DNA from: Candidatus Nanohaloarchaea archaeon
GTDB lineage: Archaea; Nanohalarchaeota; Nanosalinia; Nanosalinales; Nanosalinaceae
DNA length: 32,114 bases
Assembly: GCA_042217585.1 (NCBI GenBank)
Contig: JBDGSJ010000029.1
Location: 1 to 32,114 of the forward strand
Direction: 5' to 3'
Shown in pieces: positions 8,020-27,646 of this stretch. Under the pieces are notes generated by a model. The model did not search any database. It had not been told where the DNA came from and saw only the letters and a program-made list of their open reading frames with translations. The position numbers and the translations under genes are program-made. Every line of letters begins with the position of its first letter. Position 1 is the stretch's first letter.

Positions 8020-9120
8020 TCAGAGAGACTGATCGTGTTCCTCCAGGAACTGCTCCACCTCTGGACCTGCCTGCTCCCTCCTCTCCCTGTGCTCCACGAG
8101 GAACTCCTCGAGCCTTTCCTTCGCTATCTGCTTCAGCTCCCCTGAAAGCATTTCACCTGAGCTGTACTCCTCCCTGATCCTCTCAAGCTCGTCGTCGTTC
8201 TCTATCAAGTGGAATGCCAGGAGCTCGAACACCATGTCCTCGGAGATATCGGCACCTTTCTCCCTGTGTTCCTCGAGAGAGTCCTGGCCCCCGGTCTTGG
8301 CCTGATCTATCTTTTCCTTGGCGTCCTCGATGTCGTCCGTCAGAGCTATGTAGCTCTTGGGATCCGAGGAACTCATCTTCCCTCCCTGCAGCCCTCTCAT
8401 GAACTTGTTGTACGTGGAGGCCGGCTTCACGAAGTCTATCTCCTGGTACTTGGAGGCGACCTCCCTTGTCAGCCTGATGTGGGGATCCTGGTCCACCCCT
8501 ACCGGTACCACGGTCGGCTTCGGACCTCCCCTCTCCGGGAACTGCGGGCGGAGTATATCGGCGTACTGGGTTAGCGAGGAGGCTATCTTGCCGGGGTCCG
8601 CGCTCCCGTACGTCGCCTCGACCTCGTTCTGCGTGAGGTGACGGGCGAACTGCTTGGACCTGAGGTGGTAGTCGTTCCCCCCATTGGACTGGAAGTAAAA
8701 GTCGGTTTTTTCAAGGTCCATGCCGAGAGCCACGTAGTTCTTGAGGTACTGCTCCACGACCAGCTCACGGGATTCCTCCAGAGAGATGTCACGAGTGGCG
8801 TATGCCTCTATATCGGCCGCGGCTACGGTCACCTCGGCTCCCATCTCCTGGTACATCAGTATCTGGTCCACGACGCTCTTGTGGCCGAAGTGGAAGATAC
8901 CTGAGGGCATTATACCGGTCATCATAGCGATGTCCTCGCCCTCATCCCTCGCGTCAAGGAAGTCCTCCATGCCTCTGTGGCCGAATATTATACCCCTGCG
9001 GACCAGGAGGCTGTCCGGCATCCGGTCCTCGATCTCACCTATCGGATCTATACCGAACTTCTGCATCTTTTTCCTGTAGTTCCCGACCTCGACGTCTCCC
9101 CAAGGATCTATCTCTGGCAT
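8020..9120 (-). CDS. trpS: Tryptophanyl-tRNA synthetase
   Basis: IDPWG, TGIMPSGIFHFGH (HIGH), PVGVDQDPHIRLTR, KMSSS, AKTGG. Confidence 0.97.
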   Translation of the reverse strand: MPEIDPWGDVEVGNYRKKMQKFGIDPIGEIEDRMPDSLLVRRGIIFGHRGMEDFLDARDEGEDIAMMTGIMPSGIFHFGHKSVVDQILMYQEMGAEVTVAAADIEAYATRDISLEESRELVVEQYLKNYVALGMDLEKTDFYFQSNGGNDYHLRSKQFARHLTQNEVEATYGSADPGKIASSLTQYADILRPQFPERGGPKPTVVPVGVDQDPHIRLTREVASKYQEIDFVKPASTYNKFMRGLQGGKMSSSDPKSYIALTDDIEDAKEKIDQAKTGGQDSLEEHREKGADISEDMVFELLAFHLIENDDELERIREEYSSGEMLSGELKQIAKERLEEFLVEHRERREQAGPEVEQFLEEHDQSL

Positions 9121-9221
9121 GTTACCTACACCCTGATTCAGTTAGAACTACTTTAAGGCTTTCCCGGCTCCTGAAACCTGGACAGAAATCTAGAGGAAAC
9201 AGAGCACCGGTTCCCAGATAT

Positions 9222-9278
9222 TCAGGCTTTTGAAAGGATCCAAAAACGTCCACCCTTCGTTGAAACCGCGGAAACCAT
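9222..9278 (-). CDS. trpS leader uORF MVSAVSTKGGRFWILSKA (18 aa)
   Basis: ATG 9278, TGA 9224-9222; Trp codon 9242-9240; +1 frame open to TAA 9124-9122, 1 nt before the trpS ATG. Confidence 0.8.
   Translation of the reverse strand: MVSAVSTKGGRFWILSKA
9240..9257 (-). promoter_or_regulatory. Putative +1 frameshift cassette, Trp sensor (AAG GGT GGA CGT TTT TGG)
   Basis: Conserved 18-mer in frame with the leader ATG; SD-like GGGTGG, spacer codon, TTT-T slip site, TGG. Confidence 0.8.
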
Positions 9279-10205: not shown

Positions 10206-10964
10206 TCAAGATCCATCTGGAGAGCCACCCGCCAGTTCACTGGTTTTCTCCGTGATGTCACCTGACATTATCGCAGAGCCTATCAGACAGGCGTCCGCGC
10301 CCGACCCCATCATCCTCTCGACGTCCTCCCGGGTCTTCAGACCGCTCTCGGCGACCAGTGTCAGGTCCCCGGATGCTTTCGGCGCCAGTCTCTCCACGGT
10401 ACCGAGATCCACTTCAAGCTCTGAGAGGTCCCGGTTGTTGATGCCCAGTACCTCCGCATCGGTCTCCAGGGCTAACTCCAGCTCCTGCTCCGTGTGGACC
10501 TCGACCAGCGGCTGGAAACCCCTGTCCCTGGCCTCGCGGACCATCTCGCCGAGGTCGTCCACGAATCGGGCTATCAGCAAAACCATGTCTGCCTCCACCC
10601 TGTCCAGCTGGGAGGGCTCGAGAATGAAGTCCTTCCTCAGTACGGGGACGTCCACTGCATCCCTGACCCTCCGGAGCAGCCGGGCGGAACCTTTGAAGTG
10701 ATCCGGCTCAGTGAGGACGGAGATGGCGGCGGCCCCTCCCTCCACCATCTTCTCCGCGGCATGTACCAGGTCCTGCTCCTTCTCGTAGTCGGAGGTCGGA
10801 CTTGTCGGCTTGACCTCTGCGATGACAGGGTCCCTGCCGTCCATTCTGGCCTCCTCAAGTGCACCGCTGAGGTCGCGGGGATCGACGGAGACCCTTCCCT
10901 CCGGGGTGGACCGCTGGCGGGCGCTCCGGAGTATCTCCCGCACCCGCGGGTCGACATCGTCCAT
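10206..10964 (-). CDS. trpC: Indole-3-glycerol phosphate synthase
   Basis: [47 protein letters not shown]. Confidence 0.97.
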
Positions 10965-11566
10965 CAGTCCTCACCTCCCGGTTCTCTGCGGTTCCTGTGC
11001 TCCCGGGCTCTCTCGACGAAGTTCTCTATCATTTCGTGGCCGTGAGAGGTCAGGATGCTCTCCGGGTGGAACTCGACGCCTTCCATCGGTCTCTCGGTGT
11101 GGCGGATACCCATCACAAGTCCGTCCGCCTCCGAGACGACCTCGAACTCCTCAGGCGTCTCCGAGACTATCAGCGAGTGGTACCTTCCGACGGGGAAACC
11201 CTGCGGGAGACCGTCGTATATCTCCTCGCCGTCGTGTTCCAGCGACGAGGTCTTACCGTGGACCGGTTCCGGCGCTCTATCGACCTCTCCGCCGAAAGCC
11301 TCTGCCATCGCCTGGTGTCCGAGGCAGACCCCGAGCATCGGGGTGTCGGAGAACTCCCTGATTATCTCAAGCATGTTGCCGGTGTCGGATTTCTTCGCGG
11401 GATGGCCCGGCCCGGGCGAAAGGACTATCGCGTCCGGATCTATCTCCCGCACCTCCTCCACGGTTACAGTGTTCTTCTCCACGACGAGGTCCTCCTCTTC
11501 CAGGCTGATGTACTCGACGAGGTTCCAGGTGAAGGAGTCGAAGTTGTCGACCATCAGGATCTTCAT
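10964..11566 (-). CDS. trpG: Anthranilate synthase component II
   Basis: [34 protein letters not shown]. Confidence 0.97.
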
Positions 11567-13125
11567 TCTTCCACCTCCAGCTCTTCAAGGGTGTCCAGAA
11601 GCGCACCCATCTTCTTCTCGGTCTCCTCGAACTCCTTCTCCGGCTCCGAGTCCGCCACTATGCCCCCGCCGGCCTGGACCGTCATCAGTTTCCTGTCCCC
11701 GATATGCCTGAAGCTTGCGGTCCTTATCGTGATCGCGAGGTCGCAGTCGACGAGCTTACCTGACCCTGAACTGCTGGAGTTCCAGGAGTAGTATCCGACG
11801 CCCCCTCCGTAGACACCACGGGGGCTCTGCTCAAGCCGGTCTATTATCTTCATGGCGCGGATCTTGGGAGCCCCGGAGAGAGTGCCCGCGGGGAAGATAG
11901 AACGCGTGGCGTCGAAGGCGTCCTTTCCCTCCCTCAGCTGGCCCGTGACCGTGGACTCCATGTGCTGGACGTGGGAGTACTGGACCACGGACATCAGCTC
12001 CTCCAGCTCGATGGTCCCGGGCTTCGAGACCCGTCTCACGTCGTTCCTCCCCAGGTCCACCAGCATGGAGTGCTCCGCCAGCTCCTTCTCATCGGAGAGC
12101 ATCTGTCCGGCCAGTCTGCGGTCCTCCACTGCGTTTTCACCACGGCCCACCGTTCCGGCTATAGGGTTCGTGCTGAGTTTCCCGTCGTCCACACTCAGCA
12201 GCGTCTCCGGGCTGGAACCGGCGACGGAGAAACCGTCGAACTCCAGCAGGTACATGTATGGAGAGGGGTTCAGCTCCCTGAGCTTCTCGTAGTACTCCCT
12301 GACGTCTCCGCGGACCTCGATCTCATGCTTCCTGGAGAGAACTGCCTGGAATATGTCCCCCTCCAGGATGTGCTCCCCGGCTTCCTCGACCATCTCGGCG
12401 TGCGGCTCCCTGTCGCCCGAGCTGTGGTCCAGGATCCTGAACCCTTCCCTGAAATCCGGTTCATGGTCCTCGACCTTCCGCTCCACTTCATCAAGAAGTT
12501 CCTCTGCCTCCCGGTACGCCTCTCCCGGGTCCTCGTCTACCATAGGCAGCACCACGAGCCGGACCTCGTCCTCCCTGTGGTCGAACACTATGTTCCTCGT
12601 GGAGAGGACGAACCGGGCGTCAGGAGTCTCTGACTCGCTCTCCCGGTCTATCCAGAGGTCGTTGACGACGTCATAGGCCAGGAATCCGACAAGACCTCCG
12701 GAGAAGACCTGCCGCCCGGATTCCTCGAACCCGTCAGGCGTCCTGTCCGGGAACGCCTCCCTTATCACGTCCAGCGTATCCCTGTCGTCCTTTATGCGGC
12801 CGTCTGGACCTACGCCCGGGAGCTCGATGTCCTCACCTCCGAGCCGCCTGAACTCGACCTCCCGGTCGTTAACGGTCAGGACCGCTTCCGGGTCGAAACC
12901 TATGAACGAGTACCTGTTCCTGTCACCGGTGTCGCCGGCATCCGCCTGCTTGATCTCGGATATCTCCTTCTCTGCGCTCTCCAGCAGGAAGGAGTAGTCC
13001 GTGCTGAGCGCGGAGTAGACCTGGAGAGGGTCCTCATCGATATCCAGAGGTGCCTCGAGCCGCACGACTTTACCTGGACCGGCTCTATCCCTGAACTCCT
13101 CCTCGGAGAGGTCGAACTCAGTCAC
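11563..13125 (-). CDS. trpE: Anthranilate synthase component I
   Basis: FLLESAE, NPSPYMY, SSPETL, PIAGT, EHSMLVDLGRND, FPAGTLSGAPK. Confidence 0.97.
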   Translation of the reverse strand: MTEFDLSEEEFRDRAGPGKVVRLEAPLDIDEDPLQVYSALSTDYSFLLESAEKEISEIKQADAGDTGDRNRYSFIGFDPEAVLTVNDREVEFRRLGGEDIELPGVGPDGRIKDDRDTLDVIREAFPDRTPDGFEESGRQVFSGGLVGFLAYDVVNDLWIDRESESETPDARFVLSTRNIVFDHREDEVRLVVLPMVDEDPGEAYREAEELLDEVERKVEDHEPDFREGFRILDHSSGDREPHAEMVEEAGEHILEGDIFQAVLSRKHEIEVRGDVREYYEKLRELNPSPYMYLLEFDGFSVAGSSPETLLSVDDGKLSTNPIAGTVGRGENAVEDRRLAGQMLSDEKELAEHSMLVDLGRNDVRRVSKPGTIELEELMSVVQYSHVQHMESTVTGQLREGKDAFDATRSIFPAGTLSGAPKIRAMKIIDRLEQSPRGVYGGGVGYYSWNSSSSGSGKLVDCDLAITIRTASFRHIGDRKLMTVQAGGGIVADSEPEKEFEETEKKMGALLDTLEELEVEE

Positions 13126-13748
13126 GGCGAAACACCCCTCGCGGAGCTCACGAAATCCTCTATCTTCTGGCTCTGCTTCTTTCCGTCCTCCTCGACTCCT
13201 GAGGAGACATCGACGGCGTCCGGGGAGACATCCTCTATCGCCTCCCCGACGTTCTCCGGGGTCAGTCCCCCGGCAAGTATGATCGGGACCTCTGCCTTCC
13301 GTGCGATCTCCGCGGCCTCACCGCGGTCGAACTCCTCGCCCGTGCCGCCGCGGCCTTTCTCCCCCGAGGAATCCAGCAGAAGAGCGTCCACAACCTCCTC
13401 GAACCTCTCTGCCTCCCGGGTCGACCCCACCTTCCGGACCAGGTCCGCAGGGATCTGCTGGCGGAGCTCTCTCACCTGGCCGGGGTCAAGGCCGGAGTGA
13501 ATCTGCAGGACATCCACTCCTGTCTCGCGGTATATCTTTTCCGCCTCCGGAACATCCTCCGGCATCGTGACCGCCACCGTAGAGATGAAAGGTGGTGTGT
13601 AACCGGCGAGTTCACGTGTCTCACCGGCATCGAGGTCTCTGTGGGTGTCAACCGGGACCTCTGTCACGAATCCGACGGCGTCTGCATTGGCTTTCACGGC
13701 CATGGATACCTCTTCCCGGGTCTTCAGGCCGCAGATCTTCACCCTCAC
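13122..13748 (-). CDS. trpF: Phosphoribosylanthranilate isomerase
   Basis: VKICGL, LQIH, GGTG, ILAGGLTPENV, VDVSSGVE. Confidence 0.96.
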   Translation of the reverse strand: MRVKICGLKTREEVSMAVKANADAVGFVTEVPVDTHRDLDAGETRELAGYTPPFISTVAVTMPEDVPEAEKIYRETGVDVLQIHSGLDPGQVRELRQQIPADLVRKVGSTREAERFEEVVDALLLDSSGEKGRGGTGEEFDRGEAAEIARKAEVPIILAGGLTPENVGEAIEDVSPDAVDVSSGVEEDGKKQSQKIEDFVSSARGVSP

Positions 13749-14746
13749 TGGTACTCCCTCATCTGGTCCAGCTTCTCGACGGTTTTCCCCTCTCTTATGG
13801 ACCGGCGGGCTATCTCGATCCCCTCCTGTATCGAGTCGGCCCTGCCGGAGACGTAGAGAGCGGCCCCGGTGTTCGCGAGTACGATATCCCTCTTCGCGCC
13901 GGTTTCCTCGCCGGAAAGTATCCTGCGGAGGTGCTCTGCGTTCTCCTCCGGCGGACCTCCCTCTATCTCGCTGACAGGGCTGGTATCGAGCCCCAGGTCG
14001 CCAGGCGCGATGCTGTACCTCTCCACGTCTTCCCCTGTCACCTCTGCGACCTCTGTCTCTCCGTGAACGGCTATCTCGTCCAGCCCTGAGCCGTGGACCA
14101 CGAGCGCCTTCTCGACGTCCATCATCGAGATAGCGCCCGCGATCCTGTCGACCAGTTCGGGGCTGTAGACCCCCACTACCTGTCCATCGACGTCGGCGGG
14201 GTTTGTGAGCGGTCCGAGGATGTTGAATACCGTCTCGATTCCGAGGTCCTTTCTCGGTCCTATCACCCTCTCCATCGCCGGGTGGAACACGGGTGCAAGC
14301 TGGAAACCTATGCCTACCTCCTCTATCACCGTCTCCACTCTCCCGGGCTCCGCACCTATCTCTATCCCGAGCTTTTCCAGGACATCGGCGCTCCCGCTCT
14401 TCGATGAGACCGAGTAGTTGCCATGCTTGGCGACCGAGGCTCCTGAGGCAGCGGCCACGATGGCGCTCGTGGTGGAGACGTTTATGGTGTCGTATTCGTC
14501 CCCTCCCGTCCCGCAGGTGTCTATCAGGCGGTCCCTGTCCGGATCTATCTTCTCGGCCTCCTCCCTCATCTTCCGGGCGAATCCTGCGATCTCCGCGTCG
14601 GTCTCCCCCTTCTGGCTCAGGCCTGCGAGCAGCGCCCCTATCTCAGCGTCAGATGCCCCCTCGAATACGTATTCGAGGGTCTCACTCGCCTCTTTTCTCG
14701 TAAGGTTTTTCCCGTTTACAGCTTTCTCGATTGTAGTGCTTGTCAT
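13745..14746 (-). CDS. trpD: Anthranilate phosphoribosyltransferase
   Basis: DTCGTGGD, NVSTT, KHGN, SGSADVLE, FNILGPLTNPA, GLDE. Confidence 0.97.
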   Translation of the reverse strand: MTSTTIEKAVNGKNLTRKEASETLEYVFEGASDAEIGALLAGLSQKGETDAEIAGFARKMREEAEKIDPDRDRLIDTCGTGGDEYDTINVSTTSAIVAAASGASVAKHGNYSVSSKSGSADVLEKLGIEIGAEPGRVETVIEEVGIGFQLAPVFHPAMERVIGPRKDLGIETVFNILGPLTNPADVDGQVVGVYSPELVDRIAGAISMMDVEKALVVHGSGLDEIAVHGETEVAEVTGEDVERYSIAPGDLGLDTSPVSEIEGGPPEENAEHLRRILSGEETGAKRDIVLANTGAALYVSGRADSIQEGIEIARRSIREGKTVEKLDQMREYQ

Positions 14747-15330
14747 TCTGATTCACCTCTGATCCTGGTCTCATTCTCCTCAACGACCACGCTGAAGCCT
14801 GTCTTGGGTTCCAGACCCGTCTCTTCCTTCACTTTCTCGATCCCTCCGAACTGGGGTTTCTGGCAGATAGTGACGATATCGACGATCTCCGCGCCGATAT
14901 CTCTGAGTATCTCCACCAGGTTCACCAGGGTTGATCCTGTGGAGACCAGGTCCTCAACTATGATCACCCTGTCACCCGGTTCTATACCGTTGACGTAGAT
15001 CGATCCCTCGGTGTAGCCGTTACTCATCCCTGTGTCGTGCTCCCCCTCGAGCTCGGAAGGGTAGAACTTGGCAAGGGAGAACGGAACACCGGTGCGGACC
15101 GATATGTGGGAGACAAGGATACCTCCACGGTCCTCCTCCCCGAGTATGACATCGGCCTCCTCGAACCCTCCCTCCTGTATCAGGAAATCACAGGCCGACT
15201 CGAAGAGTTCAGGTGAACACGCCGGTATCTGGTCCGTCAGCGGGTTCACCACGTACTCGTACTCTCCGGTCTCCTGGACCGGCTGGTCCTTCCAGCTCTC
15301 CTTCACTTTCTCGAGAGGGTCAGAAGTCAT
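14743..15330 (-). CDS. Type I purine phosphoribosyltransferase (adenine/hypoxanthine PRT-like)
   Basis: YEYVVNPLTD, PRPP-binding VIIVEDLVSTGST; start set at ATG 15330 behind a GGTGA SD, overlapping the trpA end. Confidence 0.8.
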   Translation of the reverse strand: MTSDPLEKVKESWKDQPVQETGEYEYVVNPLTDQIPACSPELFESACDFLIQEGGFEEADVILGEEDRGGILVSHISVRTGVPFSLAKFYPSELEGEHDTGMSNGYTEGSIYVNGIEPGDRVIIVEDLVSTGSTLVNLVEILRDIGAEIVDIVTICQKPQFGGIEKVKEETGLEPKTGFSVVVEENETRIRGESE

Positions 15331-16087
15331 CTCCATCACCTTCCACGGCGGATGAGACCTTTTCAGCGAGTTCACGCATCCCCTCAGGGCCGTCCTCCCT
15401 GTACCGGTCGATGAGGGCGCTACCCATTATGACGCCGTCAGCCCCCGAATCGATCGCCGTTCTCGCCTGTTCAGGTCCTGATATCCCGAAACCTATGCAC
15501 CGGGGGACATCCATACCTTCTGTCTTCTCCACGAGTCCTCTTGACTTGGATGAGAACTCGTCTCTCGCCCCTGTAGTCCCTTTCACGGAGACAAGGTAGG
15601 CAAACCCTTCGGTCATCTCCCCTATCGTCTCTATCCTTTCCTCCGGCGTGTTCTGGGACACCAGGAAGATGTGGTCCAGCGGGCTGTCCACGTCGGAGAA
15701 CTCCTCCCTGAACTCGCCGGGAGGCATGTCGGGTATTATCAGTCCTTCCACCCCTGCGCTATCGGCGTCGTCAACGAACTCCTGGTACCCGTAGCTGTAG
15801 ACCGTGTTGGCATACGCCAGCAATACTATCGGCGTGTCCCCGAACTCGGAGCTTATCTCGAAAACTTCATCTACAGTAGTTCCGGCCTGGAGGGCGGCGT
15901 GGTCAGCCTCCTTTATCGTCGGTCCGTCAGCCATCGGATCGCTGAACGGAACGCCGAGTTCGACCACGTCCGCACCTGAATCGATGAGCGCTCTCACCAT
16001 CTCCTTTGACCTTTCGACATCGGGGTAACCGGCGACGGTGAACGGGACGAATGACGGGTCCTCGAGCGCTTCCTCAATCGAACTCAA
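15320..16087 (-). CDS. trpA: Tryptophan synthase alpha chain
   Basis: [47 protein letters not shown] start at 16087 behind GGAGGTG. Confidence 0.95.
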
Positions 16088-17237
16088 GGCCTTCCACCTC
16101 CGCAACCGTGTCCATGTCCTTGTCTCCCCTTCCGGAGAGATTGACGACTATGGTCTCGTGTTCATCCGCGATCTGTTTCGTGAGCGCGACAGCGTGGGAG
16201 GACTCCAGTGCCGGAATGATGCCCTCCTCCTCGCAGAGGTCCCGGAAAGCGTCCATCGCCTCCTGGTCCGTGACAGGGCTGTACTCGGCCCTTCCCAGGA
16301 CCTTCATCTCGGAGTGCTCGGGACCGACACCGGGATAGTCCAGTCCCGCGGACACCGACTCGGTCTCCTCAATGTTCCCCTCGTCGTCCTGGAGCAGGTA
16401 GGACCTGAATCCCTGGAAGATGCCTGGCTCTCCTTCGGAGAGCGTCGCGGCGTTTCCACCTTCCTCCGGTCCGCCGGCCTCTGCTCCGTAGAAATCAACC
16501 TCCGTATCCCTGAACTCGTGGAAGAGGCCGAGCGCGTTGCTTCCTCCTCCGACGCAGGCGACCAGGGCGTCAGGTAGCTCTCCCTCCTTCTCCATCACCT
16601 GTCTCCGGGTCTCCTCCCCTATCACGCTCTGGAAGTACCGGACCATCTCCGGGAACGGTTCGGGACCGACAACGGAGCCTATCAGGTAGTGGGTGTCGTC
16701 CGAGTTCGCCACGTAGTCCTGGATGGCTGCGGTGACGGCGTCCTTCAGCGTCTCGGACCCTTCCTCGACCGGGTTCACCTCGGCCCCGCATTTCTCGATC
16801 CTTAGCGCGTTCATCTTCTGCCTCTCGACGTCCTTGCGACCCATGTATATCTCGACGTCCATGTCGAGGTAGGCTCCGGCCATCGCCGTCGCTATACCGT
16901 GCTGACCGGCCCCTGTCTCTGCGATCAGGCGGTCCTTGCCCATCCTTTTCGCGAGCAGGGCCTGGCCCAGCGTGTTGTTTATCTTGTGGGCTCCGCCGTG
17001 TAGGAGGTCCTCACGTTTCAGGTATATCTCCGCACCGTATTTCTCGGAGAGGTTCTCCGCGTGGTAGAGGTTCGTCGGTCTTCCCGCGTACTCCTCCAGG
17101 TGGCGCCGGAAATCCTCTCTGAACTCCTCGCTGTCCTTCGCCTCCTCGAACTCCTCCTGGAGTTCCTGGAGGACCGGGACGAGAAGCTCCGGCACGAACC
17201 TCCCACCGAACCGGGATTCCGCCTTCCCGGAGGTCAT
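16074..17237 (-). CDS. trpB: Tryptophan synthase beta chain
   Basis: [15 protein letters not shown] (PLP lysine), [37 protein letters not shown]. Confidence 0.98.
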
Positions 17238-17288
17238 CTACCTGCACCTCCGGACCTATCAGAAAAAGCATTGAGGTTATTCCTGGAT

Positions 17289-17372
17289 TTAGAGAACAGT
17301 TCCAGTGCTGGAGGACCAAAAACGTCCACCTTTCCGATCCTCCGCAGCGTATGCGAAGCCTGAACTTTTCAT
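17289..17372 (-). CDS. trpB proximal leader uORF MKSSGFAYAAEDRKGGRFWSSSTGTVL (27 aa)
   Basis: ATG 17372 preceded by AGGTGG; TAA 17291-17289; Trp codon 17318-17316; +1 frame ends in TGA 17236-17234 overlapping the trpB ATG. Confidence 0.8.
   Translation of the reverse strand: MKSSGFAYAAEDRKGGRFWSSSTGTVL
17316..17333 (-). promoter_or_regulatory. Putative +1 frameshift cassette, Trp sensor (AAA GGT GGA CGT TTT TGG)
   Basis: Conserved cassette, in frame with the leader ATG. Confidence 0.8.
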
Positions 17373-17406
17373 GAGTCTTTCCACCTACTACCAGAGTACT
17401 CGGAAA

Positions 17407-17425
17407 GCTTTAAATAGCTTAAAGC
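17407..17425. promoter_or_regulatory. Palindromic TATA/operator GCTTTAA-N5-TTAAAGC
   Basis: Perfect 7-bp inverted repeat; 17 nt identical to 9311-9327. Confidence 0.65.
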
Positions 17426-17583
17426 CTCCGAAAACCCTTCAAATCGCCACAAATAAGCCTGGAGAGGATAAAAACGGTTGAAAATGGCTGAAATATCGGT
17501 GTCGGAGCCATGAGGATCTGGAGACGGAGCTTATTCCCATGTAGTTCAGAAGAGAACGGTCAGTTGACCGGGCCGGAGGAAGC

Positions 17584-17601
17584 CCAAAAACGTCCACCCT
17601 T
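17584..17601 (-). promoter_or_regulatory. Putative +1 frameshift cassette, Trp sensor, second of the tandem pair
   Basis: AAG GGT GGA CGT TTT TGG lying 58 nt (19 codons + 1) downstream of the first copy, so in its +1 frame. Confidence 0.78.
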
Positions 17602-17617
17602 CAGATAGAAGCGGCTC

Positions 17618-17668
17618 TCACAGAGAACTGAGTTCCCGGGTCCAAAAACGTCCACCCTTCTGAGCCAT
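17618..17668 (-). CDS. trp operon distal leader uORF MAQKGGRFWTRELSSL (16 aa)
   Basis: ATG 17668, about 24 nt downstream of TTTAAAA (17698-17692), leaderless spacing; TGA 17620-17618. Confidence 0.78.
   Translation of the reverse strand: MAQKGGRFWTRELSSL
17642..17659 (-). promoter_or_regulatory. Putative +1 frameshift cassette, Trp sensor, first of the tandem pair
   Basis: AAG GGT GGA CGT TTT TGG in frame with ATG 17668. Confidence 0.8.
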
Positions 17669-17703
17669 ACCGGTACTTACCGCCTCCACTGTTTTAAACC
17701 TTT

Positions 17704-18852
17704 TCAGGAATCCCACTCGAGCTGTATGTCCGGCTCACCGGAAGGTAAATCCTCCCTCTCTCCGGGACCGTAGACCTTCCTGAACCCCACCATCTCTTTC
17801 GTTTTATCCCTCACCTGACTTCTCTGACTGGAGGCCGCGAGGACTGCCGATCCCATTGCCGCCGTATCGAGGTTCTCGGGCTCCCGGACCTTCCTCCCGA
17901 ATACCCCGGCCCTGATTCTGTTCCAGTTCTCCACGCTTTCTCCGCCGCCCGCTGTTATCTTCTCTCCCGCCCCTACCTCATCGAGCTTCGTCTTCATAGA
18001 TACTGCCTCCTCTCTCACCTTTTCCCTGCCAGGCATGGAGTCCTGGAACGGCGATGGAGCGTAAAAGGACCTGAGCCCCAGTCCATCGTAGTAGAAATCC
18101 TTGTTGGCGTCCTCCCCAGGCTTCAGGACGCTTATCTTCCTTGTGGTGCCGAAATCGACGGCCGTATCCCCTTCCCCGGTGAGCCCACAGCCGATGGCAG
18201 CGCATATCTCGTCCCACGGGCAGCTCACCACCCGGGCGTCCTGAAGCCCGAACTCCGAGCCTATCTCTCCCTCTGCCATCGTTCTTTCAGTGAAGTCGAT
18301 GGACCGGGGGAACAGCGACGACCGCATCCCGTGCTCCTCGCACAGCCTCTCGAGGTCCCCGTCGGGGAAGTCAAAGGAATTCCTCCTGAACTCACCAGTG
18401 AAAAGGTAGAAGACGTAATCCCTGGCATCAATCATGTATTCGGCCTCCTCGAGAGCCCCGGAGAAATTCTGTCTGAGCCAGCTGTAGTTCTGGCACAGCA
18501 TCCTTCTCCCGCCCTTGAGCCCGCTGAAATCCTGCTCCAGTTCCCCGCTCCGGCGGTCCATATAGGCCAACACGGGCGGGCTGATGGATTCTCCAGAGGA
18601 GTCAACGGGGAAAAAGGCTCCTCCGAGGCCTGTCACCGCTATCCGGTCTATCCCGCTCAATCCCGGATCCTCCTCGATCTTCTTCAGGTTCCTTTTCAGG
18701 GTCCTCCGCCAGTCACTGACCCGGTGCTCGGCGTATCCGTCACGTGGAGCGTGTACAGGAAGTTTCTCTCTTACACCGAAGACCTGTTCTCCATCCTGGC
18801 GGAAGACAAGGACCTTGCAGCTGCTTGATCCCAGGTCTACGGAGAGTATCAT
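17704..18852 (-). CDS. FGGY-family carbohydrate kinase, C-terminal domain shortened
   Basis: SVDLGSSSCK, IAVTG, YMDRRS, DYVFYLFTG, AGGG...WNRIRAGVFG...AAMGSAVLA; only 382 aa. Confidence 0.8.
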   Translation of the reverse strand: MILSVDLGSSSCKVLVFRQDGEQVFGVREKLPVHAPRDGYAEHRVSDWRRTLKRNLKKIEEDPGLSGIDRIAVTGLGGAFFPVDSSGESISPPVLAYMDRRSGELEQDFSGLKGGRRMLCQNYSWLRQNFSGALEEAEYMIDARDYVFYLFTGEFRRNSFDFPDGDLERLCEEHGMRSSLFPRSIDFTERTMAEGEIGSEFGLQDARVVSCPWDEICAAIGCGLTGEGDTAVDFGTTRKISVLKPGEDANKDFYYDGLGLRSFYAPSPFQDSMPGREKVREEAVSMKTKLDEVGAGEKITAGGGESVENWNRIRAGVFGRKVREPENLDTAAMGSAVLAASSQRSQVRDKTKEMVGFRKVYGPGEREDLPSGEPDIQLEWDS

Positions 18853-25813: not shown

Positions 25814-25867
25814 ATGACAACCAAGGGTGGATGTTTTGGATCTGCCGCAAGGCAGGACTCCGAATGA
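25814..25867 (+). CDS. glyS leader uORF MTTKGGCFGSAARQDSE (17 aa)
   Basis: TATTTAA 25775-25781 upstream; ATG 25814; Gly codon 25838-25840 after TTT; +1 frame ends in TGA 25920-25922 overlapping the glyS ATG. Confidence 0.75.
   Translation: MTTKGGCFGSAARQDSE
25823..25840 (+). promoter_or_regulatory. Putative +1 frameshift cassette, Gly sensor (AAG GGT GGA TGT TTT GGA)
   Basis: Same cassette as in the trp leaders, with the sensor codon changed from TGG to GGA. Confidence 0.72.
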
Positions 25868-25918
25868 CGCATTTTACGTTCTCAAAACCTTTGATACAGC
25901 CGAGGAAGTGACCTCGAT

Positions 25919-27646
25919 ATGAGCGAGTCAGAGGAACTGGACGAGATAGCAAGGAGAAGAGGTTTCTACTCCCAGACCGCGGAATCCTACGGCGGTGTCG
26001 CCGGCTTCTACACCTTCGGTCCTGAAGGCGCCGAACTGAAGAGGAACATAGAGAACTCGTGGCGCGACTGGTTCAGGATACGTGAGGGCCACAGGGAGAT
26101 AGAGGCGCCGACGATCATGCCGGAACCGATCTTCGAGTCCTCCGGCCACCTCGACGGCTTCGACGACATGATAATCGAATGCCCCGAGTGCGGTACGAGC
26201 TCGAGGGCGGACCACCTCGTCGAGGACAACACCGATATCGAGGAGGCGGAGAGCTTTTCCACGGACCAGATAGAGGCGCTCATCGAGGATCACGACCTCT
26301 GCTGCCCGACCTGCGGACACGACCTGACAGGTATCGAGGTGGACGACTTCAACCTGATGTTCAGCACGAACATCGGTCCAGGCGACTCCTCGCCCGGCTA
26401 CCTCAGGCCCGAGACCGCACAAGGCATCTTCGCCGAGTTCCCGAGGTTCAAGGAGTACGCCCGCGAACAGCTGCCCTTCGCGATCACACAGCTCGGAAAG
26501 GCGTACAGGAACGAGATAAGCCCGCGGAACGCGCTGGTCCGGGTCCGCGAGTTCACCCAGGCGGAGCTGGAGCACTTCATAGATCCTGAGAGGGATGAAC
26601 CGGAGCTCGAAAAGGTCGAGGACATCGAGCTGAAGCTCTATCCCGCCGAGAAACAGGGAGAGGGCGAATACGTCAGGGCGACGGTCCGCGAGGCGGTCGA
26701 GAACGGTATAATCGAGTCAGAGTGGATCGCCTACTACCTCGGACTGGCGAAGCAGTGGTACATGAGCATAGGCGTCGACATGGACCGATTCAGGTTCAGG
26801 CAGCACCTGGAGGGCGAGAGAGCCCATTACGCCACGGACTGCTGGGACGCCGAGAGCGAGGTCGACGGCGACTGGATAGAGATAGCCGGTTTCGCCTACA
26901 GGGGCTGCTACGACCTGAAGAAGCACCACGAGAACTCCGAGGACGACTTCAGGATATTCAGACAGTACGACGAGCCGAAGACCGTCGAGGATAAGACCGT
27001 CAACCCTGACATGGGATACCTCGGCCCCGAGTACGGAGAGAAAGCCGGCGACATAGCAGAAAGCCTTGAAAAACTCGCAGAGGACGAACCCGAGGCGTTC
27101 GACTCCGATCACGTGACCGTGACGGTCGGCGACGAGGAGTTCGAGATACCGTCCGGAAAGGCGAACTTCAGCGTCGAGGAGAAGGAGAAGAACGGCGAGA
27201 AGTTCCTTCCGCACGTCGTCGAGCCCTCCTTCGGTATCGGCAGGACTGTCTACACGGTCCTCGCCCACCGGATGGAGGAAGAGGAGATAGAAGACGGTGA
27301 GAGGACCGTGATGAGGTTCTCACCGGAGATAGCGCCGACGGAGGTCGCCGTCCTTCCCCTGATGGACAAGGAGGGCATGGGAGAGAAGGCAGAGGAACTG
27401 GTCCGGCGGCTCAGGGCCGAGAGCTTCTCCGTCAGCGCTGATACCTCGGGAAGCATCGGTAGACGTTACCGGAGGCAGGACGAGGTCGGTACACCTGTCT
27501 GCGTCACCGTCGACTACGAGACGCTTGAGGAGGGCACCGTCACTCTGAGGGACCGGGACTCCACGGAGCAGGCCCGGGTGGATGTCGAGGACCTCGAGAG
27601 AAGCATCATAAGGTTCCTCTCCGGAACGGAGCTTGAGGACCTGTGA
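25919..27646 (+). CDS. glyS: Glycyl-tRNA synthetase (archaeal/eukaryotic alpha2 type)
   Basis: LRPETAQGIF, YRNEISPR, RVREFTQAELE, AHYA, VVEPSFGIGR, SIGRRYRRQDEVG. Confidence 0.97.
   Translation: MSESEELDEIARRRGFYSQTAESYGGVAGFYTFGPEGAELKRNIENSWRDWFRIREGHREIEAPTIMPEPIFESSGHLDGFDDMIIECPECGTSSRADHLVEDNTDIEEAESFSTDQIEALIEDHDLCCPTCGHDLTGIEVDDFNLMFSTNIGPGDSSPGYLRPETAQGIFAEFPRFKEYAREQLPFAITQLGKAYRNEISPRNALVRVREFTQAELEHFIDPERDEPELEKVEDIELKLYPAEKQGEGEYVRATVREAVENGIIESEWIAYYLGLAKQWYMSIGVDMDRFRFRQHLEGERAHYATDCWDAESEVDGDWIEIAGFAYRGCYDLKKHHENSEDDFRIFRQYDEPKTVEDKTVNPDMGYLGPEYGEKAGDIAESLEKLAEDEPEAFDSDHVTVTVGDEEFEIPSGKANFSVEEKEKNGEKFLPHVVEPSFGIGRTVYTVLAHRMEEEEIEDGERTVMRFSPEIAPTEVAVLPLMDKEGMGEKAEELVRRLRAESFSVSADTSGSIGRRYRRQDEVGTPVCVTVDYETLEEGTVTLRDRDSTEQARVDVEDLERSIIRFLSGTELEDL

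Follow-up and report, generated by a model that had tools for sequence, protein, structure and literature searches.

The described systems closest to the leaders reported here are the programmed frameshift of prfB, the T-box, leader-peptide attenuators, and the +1 shifts of the hungry-codon or Ty1/Ty3 type. We compare these systems, and arrest leaders of the TnaC kind, with a family of short leaders and in particular with the distal leader of the tryptophan (trp) operon in a stretch of 32,114 nucleotides (nt) from a Candidatus Nanohaloarchaea archaeon (NCBI GenBank assembly GCA_042217585.1, contig JBDGSJ010000029.1, positions 1 to 32,114 of the forward strand; the window below means this whole stretch). 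The distal leader holds two exact copies of a 15-nt cassette in tandem, and we consider it likely, from comparison of related genomes, that two shifts operate there in series, as a two-step form of a modular, prfB-like +1 frameshift that sets in when the specifier codon is hungry. The finding opens onto what appears to be a phylum-wide system of codon-specific leaders. We know of little on how archaea control synthetase and amino-acid genes through tRNA charging, and full-text searches found no description of such leaders.

Parts of such a device are familiar from the systems just named. In prfB, as in our model of the leaders described here, a short zero-frame open reading frame (ORF) stops early unless the ribosome slips by +1 at a site of the NUU-U type, an element resembling a Shine-Dalgarno (SD) sequence lies just upstream, and the product is in the +1 frame. 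The T-box (RF00230) of Gram-positive bacteria likewise places one leader platform before many synthetase and amino-acid genes. Leader-peptide attenuators such as E. coli trpL (RF00513) share a 5'-proximal short ORF that gauges charged tRNA ahead of biosynthetic genes, and some resemble our leaders further in that the mRNA is leaderless or nearly so. The leaderless polycysteine small ORFs of mycobacteria belong with these attenuators (bioRxiv 10.1101/834739). Hungry-codon shifts would share with our leaders a slow A-site codon beside a P-site tRNA able to re-pair in the +1 frame. A 2016 review gives the Ty1 site as CUU_AGG_C and states that starvation-induced frameshifting with dedicated trans-frame products is not known from any example (PMC5009743, Atkins et al. 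2016). For archaea, a 2021 review gives a -1 event in fucA1 as the single confirmed cellular frameshift (PMC8211752).

Two cassettes in tandem in the distal trp leader

Two leaders, one distal and one proximal, precede trpB. All coordinates are window positions; both trp leaders, the trp operon and trpS lie on the minus strand, and the leader of glyS lies on the plus strand. The distal leader comprises the following features.

17692 to 17698, minus strand: distal TATA-like box, TTTAAAA, its first T 30 nt 5' of the A of the ATG at 17668-17666
17618 to 17668, minus strand: leader ORF 1 in the zero frame, MAQKGGRFWTRELSSL, from ATG 17668 to the stop TGA 17620-17618
17642 to 17656, minus strand: cassette 1, an exact copy of the 15-mer GGTGGACGTTTTTGG
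17612 to 17620, minus strand: 3' strand of helix P1, GAGAGCC region, overlapping and directly following the zero-frame stop and pairing with the mRNA 5' end AUGGCUC at 17668-17660
17560 to 17643, minus strand: relay frame GPGNSVLCESRFYLKGGRFWASSGPVN, which follows a first +1 step and is the zero frame of cassette 2, with stop TGA 17562-17560
17584 to 17598, minus strand: cassette 2, exact GGTGGACGTTTTTGG, with UUU at 17589-17587 and UGG at 17586-17584, without an ATG of its own
17439 to 17585, minus strand: third frame, which follows a second +1 step, 48 codons to the stop TGA 17441-17439, encoding a conserved small peptide
17470 to 17474, minus strand: T5 run, a candidate archaeal oligo-T terminator, 33 nt 3' of the Trp codon of the small peptide

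The first T of the TATA-like box stands 30 nt before ATG 17668, and on this geometry the distal trp mRNA is therefore probably leaderless. Leaders that begin MAQKGG(R/C)(F/V)W, as does this one, are also found in six other genomes. Cassette 1 consists of an SD-like GGUGGA (17656-17651), the E-site codon CGU, the shift codon UUU (17647-17645) and the specifier UGG (17644-17642). Cassette 2 follows at an offset of 58 nt, or 19 codons plus one nucleotide, and between the two copies there is a stop in the zero frame and in the +2 frame and none in the +1 frame. Read from UUU 17647-17645, the +1 frame is GPGNSVLCESRFYLKGGRFW, and it carries the second copy in register.

Most of this layout had been set out in an initial annotation made from the letters of the window alone. 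Its coordinates for the distal leader (ATG 17668, the two 15-mer copies and the stops) all hold on the minus strand, and frame inspection agrees that the second copy comes into register only after a first shift, with the +1 frame as the sole open frame between the copies and no in-frame ATG feeding copy 2. It had gone on to suggest that copy 2 is translatable only after a shift; the absence of an ATG stands, and yet a GUG inside the cassette, in the +1 frame, could also feed copy 2. The 48 codons that a second +1 step would open to TGA 17441-17439 were reproduced, and they are more than open, since they code for a peptide conserved in 31 leaders. Its motif YMGISSVSRSSW lies at 17543-17508, and its Trp codon at 17510-17508. 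With this codon there are four UGG codons ahead of trpB, and not the up to three Trp checkpoints that had been proposed.

Chance does not explain the motif: at up to three mismatches the 15-mer has five matches in the window (four exact), where 0.68 would be expected, and as many as five appeared in 0 of 100 shuffles. The exact sites are at 17656-17642, 17598-17584, 17330-17316 (proximal trpB leader) and 9254-9240 (trpS leader); the copy in the glyS leader is the match with three mismatches. DNA contigs of three runs confirm the sequence. Contigs from two other DNA runs match the stretch save for one base change at 17430; one of these runs belongs to the same study, and this DNA may itself derive from one of them. 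Among runs on record as RNA, none covers positions 16900-17760.

The cassette is a conserved module of Nanohaloarchaeota

We compared the locus across 70 genomes, a set that is identical for the window's order and its phylum; the window's own genome is about 1 Mb in size and 90% complete. The core RGGTGGAYGYKTT recurs across Nanohaloarchaeota behind a start codon at or near the inferred 5' end. The pattern GGTGRNYGYKTTTGG has 82 matches in 41 of the 70 genomes, against 9 for a reversed-pattern control, and 78 of these 82 UGG-pattern sites are cassette-like. An open upstream ATG stands in the zero frame at 74 of the 78 cassettes, in the +1 frame at 11 and in the +2 frame at 6, and the four cassettes that lack a zero-frame ATG are second copies of tandems. 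Beyond the W codon, the zero frame reaches a stop within 0-17 codons (median 5) and the +2 frame within a median of 7, and the +1 frame runs for 20-502 codons (median 44).

Leader-type cassettes (n = 34) have their ATG 3-4 codons before GGT and a TATA-like box upstream; the boxes were judged by eye, with the 30-nt spacing measured for the window locus and for one other genome (G010) only. In gene- or coupler-type cassettes (n = 40) the TATA is near -40, and a conserved box, ACGTGAT (or GTGGT), stands 5-12 nt 5' of the ATG and about 30 nt 3' of the TATA at, for example, loci L022, L018 and L020, and at about 170-180 of contig C1 in the window's genome. The ACGTGAT box may be either a transcription start region or a factor binding site.

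The cassettes are linked to trpS: of the 31 cassette-bearing genomes of the family, 26 have a same-strand UGG cassette at most 6 kb 5' of this gene. Two types of tryptophanyl-tRNA synthetase occur in the family, about 71-82% and about 36-42% identical to the enzyme of the window, and UGG cassettes are found before both. A diverged cassette copy upstream of trpS was found in none of 14 regions from genomes without a UGG cassette, and in the six of these genomes whose upstream sequence was read, trpS directly follows an AstE/AspA-like gene. In a wider scan of genome contigs, 13 of at least 122 sites pass a loose leader filter, and these are mostly nanohaloarchaeal records; the matches listed outside Nanohaloarchaea look like chance, and a restriction of the cassette to the phylum is not established.

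Spacing of paired cassettes modulo 3

If the second cassette of a tandem is read only after a shift at the first, then the distance between the copies should be constrained. Varying spacing had been named beforehand by the initial annotation as grounds for refuting a relay, and the 3n+1 spacing is in fact kept in relatives: the short-spaced Trp-Trp pairs are 58, 58, 58, 58 and 52 nt apart, all 1 modulo 3 (5/5, in four genomes). These tandems comprise the locus in the window's genome, two loci of G016, one of G032, which belongs to another family, and one of G010. Of the three frames between the copies, the +1 frame alone is open at all five loci, and in four of the five the second copy has no ATG of its own. 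The frame reached after two steps encodes the small peptide at three loci; at one it is a 28-codon ORF ending TAATG on the start of an aminotransferase, and at another it is the aminotransferase itself. The 28 long-spaced pairs, whose second copies each come with a promoter and an ATG, spread at random over the classes modulo 3 (6, 10 and 12).

A different rule applies to pairs with different specifiers (Ile or Val, then Leu). Their spacings of 21, 21, 30, 30, 33, 66 and 69 nt are 0 modulo 3 in 7 of 7 cases, with both cassettes in one ATG frame, and therefore a shift at either would enter the same +1 frame, as in an OR gate. In metagenomes, a search for two cassettes at a distance of 40-70 nt found 74 loci with 71 pairs, which are all unrelated repeats and in no case cassette-like; these 71 repeat pairs served as a null for spacing and fall into classes modulo 3 of 30, 21 and 20.

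The double cassettes include loci L404, L417, L430, L436, L437 and L460, as well as one at 46617-46683 of contig C19 in the window's genome, whose shared +1 ORF is rich in Leu and Val (…AVLSDLVPVLLLVAVTVSVLV). The proteins downstream of them (150-370 amino acids) have no NCBIfam match at an E-value of 1e-40 or better, and that of the copy in the window's genome has none at 1e-5.

The specifier codon matches the downstream gene

The cassette is not confined to trp genes. It is a generic modular leader of many aminoacyl-tRNA synthetase genes, and wherever a non-Trp case can be assigned (26 of 26), the codon that follows (U/G)UU in the ATG frame agrees with the amino acid of the gene downstream. 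We count a case as assignable where the downstream gene is a synthetase or an enzyme of an amino-acid pathway, with the genes of relatives named by NCBIfam. UGG cassettes, for their part, precede trpS or trp operons. A pattern with one T fewer, ARGGTGRNYGYKTTGGN, has 33 matches against 1 in the control, with leaders of the form M(x)KGG(R/C)F-G.

In the window's genome the matches are ACC with thrS, GTA with valS, CCG with proC/proB, TCT with serS and GGA with glyS, and the leaders take the forms MKGGRF-T (thrS), MKGGRF-S (serS), ...KGGRF-V (valS) and ...KGGRV-P (a proC-proB fusion). Six complete relatives add 21 matches: GGA before glyS (four), TAY before tyrS (four), GTA before valS (five), TCT before serS (two), ACC before thrS (two), and one each of CCA before proS, TGT before cysS, AAA before lysS and ATT before ilvA. 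In the cassettes at loci L008, L009 and L010, which end ...TTTTTGT, the specifier is the Cys codon TGT.

Cassettes with a His specifier (CAC or CAT) occur at loci L428, L438 and L461 and at position 3124 of contig C38 in the window's genome. They stand before an AbrB-like +1 ORF of 74-78 codons and a nucleoside-hydrolase-like gene, and not before hisS; for these the specifier rule may not hold, or the link may not be obvious.

What the +1 frame leads to

Three kinds of output lie in the +1 frame. The first is a real protein that lacks a separate ATG and is fused to this frame, as with a GNAT acetyltransferase, a class I/II aminotransferase, an M20 peptidase, a TrpD-like glycosyl transferase, GCS2, an inositol monophosphatase and, just before trpB in two genomes, an acidic protein of 120 amino acids.

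The second is a short, unconserved coupling ORF that ends on the start of the next gene. Such junctions are ATGA for trpB (17237-17234), TAAcATG for trpS, TGAtATG for the trpS of a genome from another family, and TAATG for an aminotransferase. In 20 of 20 synthetase leaders of relatives, the +1 ORF (21-104 codons) ends between -4 and +12 nt from the ATG of the synthetase; in the window's genome the range relative to the gene's ATG is -10 to +6 nt.

The third output, that of leader-type cassettes, is a small peptide ending ...Y-L-x-I-S-S-V-K-N-F-S-W, with a conserved pattern Y-x-x-I-S-S-V-x-x-x-S-W and its own Trp codon in 31 leaders. Over 31 unique orthologous blocks the entropy at codon positions 1, 2 and 3 is 1.09, 0.73 and 1.58, and serine codons switch between TCN and AGY, which together argue that this frame is translated and selected as protein. 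Conservation of the peptide runs up to the Trp codon, 0-22 codons before its stop, and a run of five or more T follows 10-45 nt after that codon in 16 of the 31 leaders.

A proposed mechanism and its rivals

From the anatomy, conservation, codon-gene rule, frame rules and coding selection in the +1 frame, we infer the shift itself, its dependence on starvation and a role for the small peptide. A ribosome would load at the ATG, at the 5' end or about 10 nt from it, and translate a short ORF in which (K)-G-G-(R/C)-(F/V), encoded by RGGUGGAYGYKUU, brings (U/G)UU into the P site, with the specifier next to it in the A site. With the cognate aminoacyl-tRNA plentiful, decoding would go on to the stop a few codons later and nothing downstream would be made. 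With it scarce, the ribosome would pause, anchored where GGUG(R)N(Y) pairs with the 16S 3' tail, and the P-site tRNA would slip one base forward onto UUN, or the +1 codon would be read directly. Translation in the +1 frame would then make the gene product directly, follow a coupling ORF as far as the start of the gene, or give the conserved small peptide.

In the window, UGG cassettes would thus control trpS, trpB and the distal leader, and a GGA cassette glyS. At the 3n+1 spacing of the distal tandem, both shifts would be needed to make the small peptide ...YMGISSVSRSSW, with output proportional to p squared. The peptide's UGG lies just before the T5 run and the proximal promoter, and a ribosome stalled there might affect termination or read-through. 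We also think it fairly likely that one portable device with an exchangeable specifier, a "frameshift T-box", governs much of the expression of synthetase and amino-acid-pathway genes in Nanohaloarchaeota, with cassettes in series (3n+1) acting as an AND or squared response and cassettes in parallel (3n) as an OR (Ile/Val and Leu). The first reading of the locus is partly supported: its core idea, a +1 shift at UUU-UGG that senses Trp, has strong comparative backing in the sequences, and its scope was too narrow.

The slip site itself speaks to this mechanism. Across 139 cassette-like sites the P-site codon is UUU in 113 and GUU in 26, which makes every +1 codon UUN. GUU stands before 15 of 16 specifiers that begin with C, and UUU before 47 of 47 that begin with A or G; UUU-C, whose +1 codon UUC is the stronger cognate of tRNA-Phe(GAA), is avoided. 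The choice of P-site codon thus depends on the first base of the specifier, and therefore the overlapping +1 codon matters. Pairing with the 16S tail GGAUCACCUCC is retained at each variable position of the motif, R(-1), R5 and Y7, and GGUG is separated from the P-site codon by 5 nt, where the genome's SD-ATG distances range over 5-8 nt with a mode of 7.

Codon usage sets the cassette apart from the rest of the genome. TTT makes up 5.9% of Phe codons in the window's genome, whose 517 long ORFs contain 0 instances of TTT-TGG, although all six of that genome's Trp cassettes have it. Codons ending in T amount to 9%, and the cassette nonetheless uses GGT, CGT and TTT. An NNT codon precedes TGG 26 times against 123 expected. 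Among codon pairs of this genome more generally, T-ending codons are 3- to 8-fold under-represented before AGG, TGG, TGC and AAG and over-represented before CCA, TTT and TCA. A tRNA with a four-base anticodon was not found among the 25 tRNAs that aragorn predicts in this 90% complete genome.

Several observations weigh against the frameshift mechanism. Re-pairing in the +1 frame is complete only for UUU before U, or before C (one site); where the specifier begins with A or G, or the P site has GUU, it is limited to two bases out of three. The 5-nt spacing of the SD-like element is at the low end of the normal range for initiation and is less short than the 3 nt of prfB. The avoidance of NNT is not specific to TGG and applies likewise to AGG, TGC and AAG. 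The 58-nt spacing is common to four of the five tandems, which may therefore not be independent events. Helix P1 has no role in the model. Thirteen cassette loci (His, single Leu, Phe, and the Ile/Val and Leu doubles) precede genes that are not tied to an amino acid. Lastly, the +1 frame of every cassette has an unvarying GUG (G-GUG-GA), from which translation might start internally, so that no shift would be needed to enter this frame.

This last point underlies the rival explanation that survives best, although we regard it as unlikely: no frameshift takes place, the +1 ORFs start at the GUG within the motif, and the ATG ORF is an overlapping regulatory upstream ORF (uORF) that occludes or modulates initiation there. 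GGUG is indeed invariant in all 78 Trp cassettes and in every other family, ORF calling returns from this GUG a 52-amino-acid ORF at 17597-17439, in the +1 frame neither the C/T change at motif position 7 nor the T/G change at position 10 alters the amino acid, and the 3n+1 tandem can also be read as a GUG-fed cascade of uORFs. The polarity of such a switch would be wrong, however, as a ribosome stalled at the specifier covers the GUG, 8 nt upstream of the P-site codon, and starvation would turn the gene off. Among the routes considered, only +1 entry at the hungry codon would turn on trp, ilvA, proCB and synthetase genes at starvation, and polarity therefore supports the frameshift. Nor does the GUG look like a start codon: it has no SD of its own, being overlapped by the SD-like element, and the position is never AUG, though every leader start is AUG and stands at or near the inferred 5' end. 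Across the 70 genomes the GUG never appears as AUG, UUG or CUG, and G[A/C/T]TG variants number 16 against 12 in the control, with 0 of 12 examined being cassette-like. The N-terminus that it would give varies between families (MDVFG versus MDVLD), whereas the zero-frame KGG(R/C)F is kept, and initiation at GUG leaves no role for the specifier rule or for the dependence of the P-site codon on the specifier's first base.

Classical leader-peptide attenuation, in which a stall at the specifier alters folding or termination (through P1, oligo-T or a factor) and the frame is unchanged, seems to us improbable, more so than a GUG start. It would account for a short leader ORF with a regulatory codon, for a zero-frame stop that lies 0-3 nt before the 3' strand of a covarying helix at the 5' end, and for the T5-or-longer runs after the Trp codon of the small peptide in 16 of 31 leaders. 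The helix itself, P1, joins the mRNA 5' end including the AUG to a box after the zero-frame stop at 33 leader-type loci. Its own pairs average -7.85 kcal/mol against -5.49 for cross pairs, a mean that 0 of 5000 permutations reach, and the window locus has -10.1. Two candidate alternative pairings were examined, and they show no covariation: the 3' strand of P1 (region 2) with the W region gives -8.98 for own and -8.83 for cross pairs (reached by 1785 of 5000 permutations), and a long-range AGCUAU helix gives -11.74 and -11.27 (885 of 5000). An Rfam scan of the whole window at the gathering threshold gave 0 hits. Attenuation further leaves unexplained the +1-fused genes without a start codon, the ends of +1 ORFs on start codons (20/20), the modulo-3 rules (12/12) and the tuning of UUU and GUU.

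We find it very hard to believe that the core is an operator for a protein or tRNA (a transcription factor, a synthetase or a T-box-like RNA) with incidental ORF features: conservation at the nucleotide level, including wobble positions, would fit, as would the likeness that GGGUGGA presumably has to T-box sequence and TGGAC presumably to a Thermococcales Tar half-site, but the motif lacks palindromic symmetry, is situated 3' of the inferred transcription start, would on geometric reasoning place GGGUGGA and the specifier (8 nt apart) too close for both ends of a tRNA, faces a discriminator A in tRNA-Trp where UGGA would need U, has no Rfam T-box match, and as an operator would have no need for the ATG frame (74/78), early zero-frame stops, long +1 frames or modulo-3 rules. 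Transcriptional slippage was rejected on account of T runs only 3-5 long, and a UUG start in the +2 frame on account of the shortness of that frame (median 7 codons).

Other leaders and the trp operon in the window

Beyond the distal leader, the window holds three further cassette-bearing leaders and the genes that they precede.

17408 to 17414, minus strand: proximal TATA-like box of the trpB leader, TTTAAAG
17289 to 17372, minus strand: proximal leader ORF MKSSGFAYAAEDRKGGRFWSSSTGTVL, with cassette 3 at 17330-17316 and stop TAA 17291-17289
17234 to 17317, minus strand: +1 coupling frame of cassette 3, 27 codons, its TGA (17236-17234) overlapping the trpB ATG (17237-17235) as ATGA
10206 to 17237, minus strand: trp operon by Pfam, in the order trpB, trpA, phosphoribosyltransferase-like gene, trpD, trpF, trpE, trpG, trpC
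9122 to 9278, minus strand: trpS leader MVSAVSTKGGRFWILSKA, with ATG at 9278 and cassette at 9254-9240
25814 to 25922, plus strand: glyS leader MTTKGGCFGSAARQDSE, with core at 25826-25837 and specifier GGA at 25838-25840

The ATG of the proximal leader, previously placed at 17371, is at 17372-17370. A hairpin at the trpB SD and ATG has -22 kcal/mol and z = -0.9 against shuffles, which is not exceptional. The gene with a phosphoribosyltransferase domain (PF00156) lies at 14743-15375 (minus strand), between trpA and trpD inside the operon. Downstream of the operon, trpS was identified by profile at 9120-8020, and the +1 frame of its leader runs for 39 codons and ends at TAA 9124-9122, 1 nt before the trpS ATG at 9120. 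The +1 frame of the glyS leader (MTTKGGCFG...) ends at TGA 25920-25922 and overlaps the glyS ATG at 25919; glyS was identified by TIGR00389 at 648 bits.

The closest public relatives of TrpB are labelled Nanohalobium. One record, JBLGBK010000007.1, labelled as a Colwellia polaris metagenome-assembled genome, contains a trpB of nanohaloarchaeal type (80% identity), preceded by the same two UGG cassettes, and is probably mis-binned or mislabelled.

Comparison with known systems

If confirmed, the cassette would be a compact amino-acid sensor of about 30 nt, programmable by a codon, and would offer a natural experiment on the rules of +1 slippage through its UUU/GUU tuning and SD-like anchor. It would also explain dozens of DPANN genes without a start codon, which automatic annotation necessarily mis-starts. 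More broadly, the leaders suggest how an obligate symbiont may monitor each amino acid that it obtains from its host.

The nearest parallel is with prfB. Both would rely on a slow A-site codon whose decoding depends on the regulated product, the slowness being assumed in our case, and the trpS and glyS leaders would form the same kind of feedback loop. The cassettes differ in having at the A site, in place of a stop, a sense codon for one of at least 13 amino acids, so that the sensed molecule would be an aminoacyl-tRNA. They are moreover archaeal, their +1 frame is often only a coupling ORF or small peptide and not a gene, and they are combined in series (3n+1) or in parallel (3n). If the shift is real, cellular archaeal genes would here provide their first case of +1 programmed frameshifting. 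Unlike hungry-codon shifts as described, the cassette would be a dedicated control device used across a regulon and, if this is true, the first natural regulatory use of hungry-codon frameshifting.

The leaders also depart from trpL-type attenuators, having one specifier per cassette at a fixed place after the KGGRF platform rather than a run of codons, no alternative-hairpin switch in the two pairings examined, and genes that are in the +1 frame or coupled to it. With arrest leaders of the TnaC kind the likeness is confined to the small peptide, which is conserved up to its Trp codon and which we take to be without sequence likeness to TnaC.

With the T-box, the resemblance is one of logic only: a single modular specifier codon is matched to the gene (26/26), and tRNA charging would be what is sensed. 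In the cassette, the codon is apparently read by a translating ribosome and not by direct binding of tRNA, there is neither a Stem I nor an antiterminator architecture nor an Rfam match, and UGGA does not fit the discriminator A of tRNA-Trp (...A-CCA). The output would be a change of frame with translational coupling, and not antitermination. If the mechanism proposed here is true, these archaeal leaders would be a ribosome-based functional analogue of the bacterial T-box.

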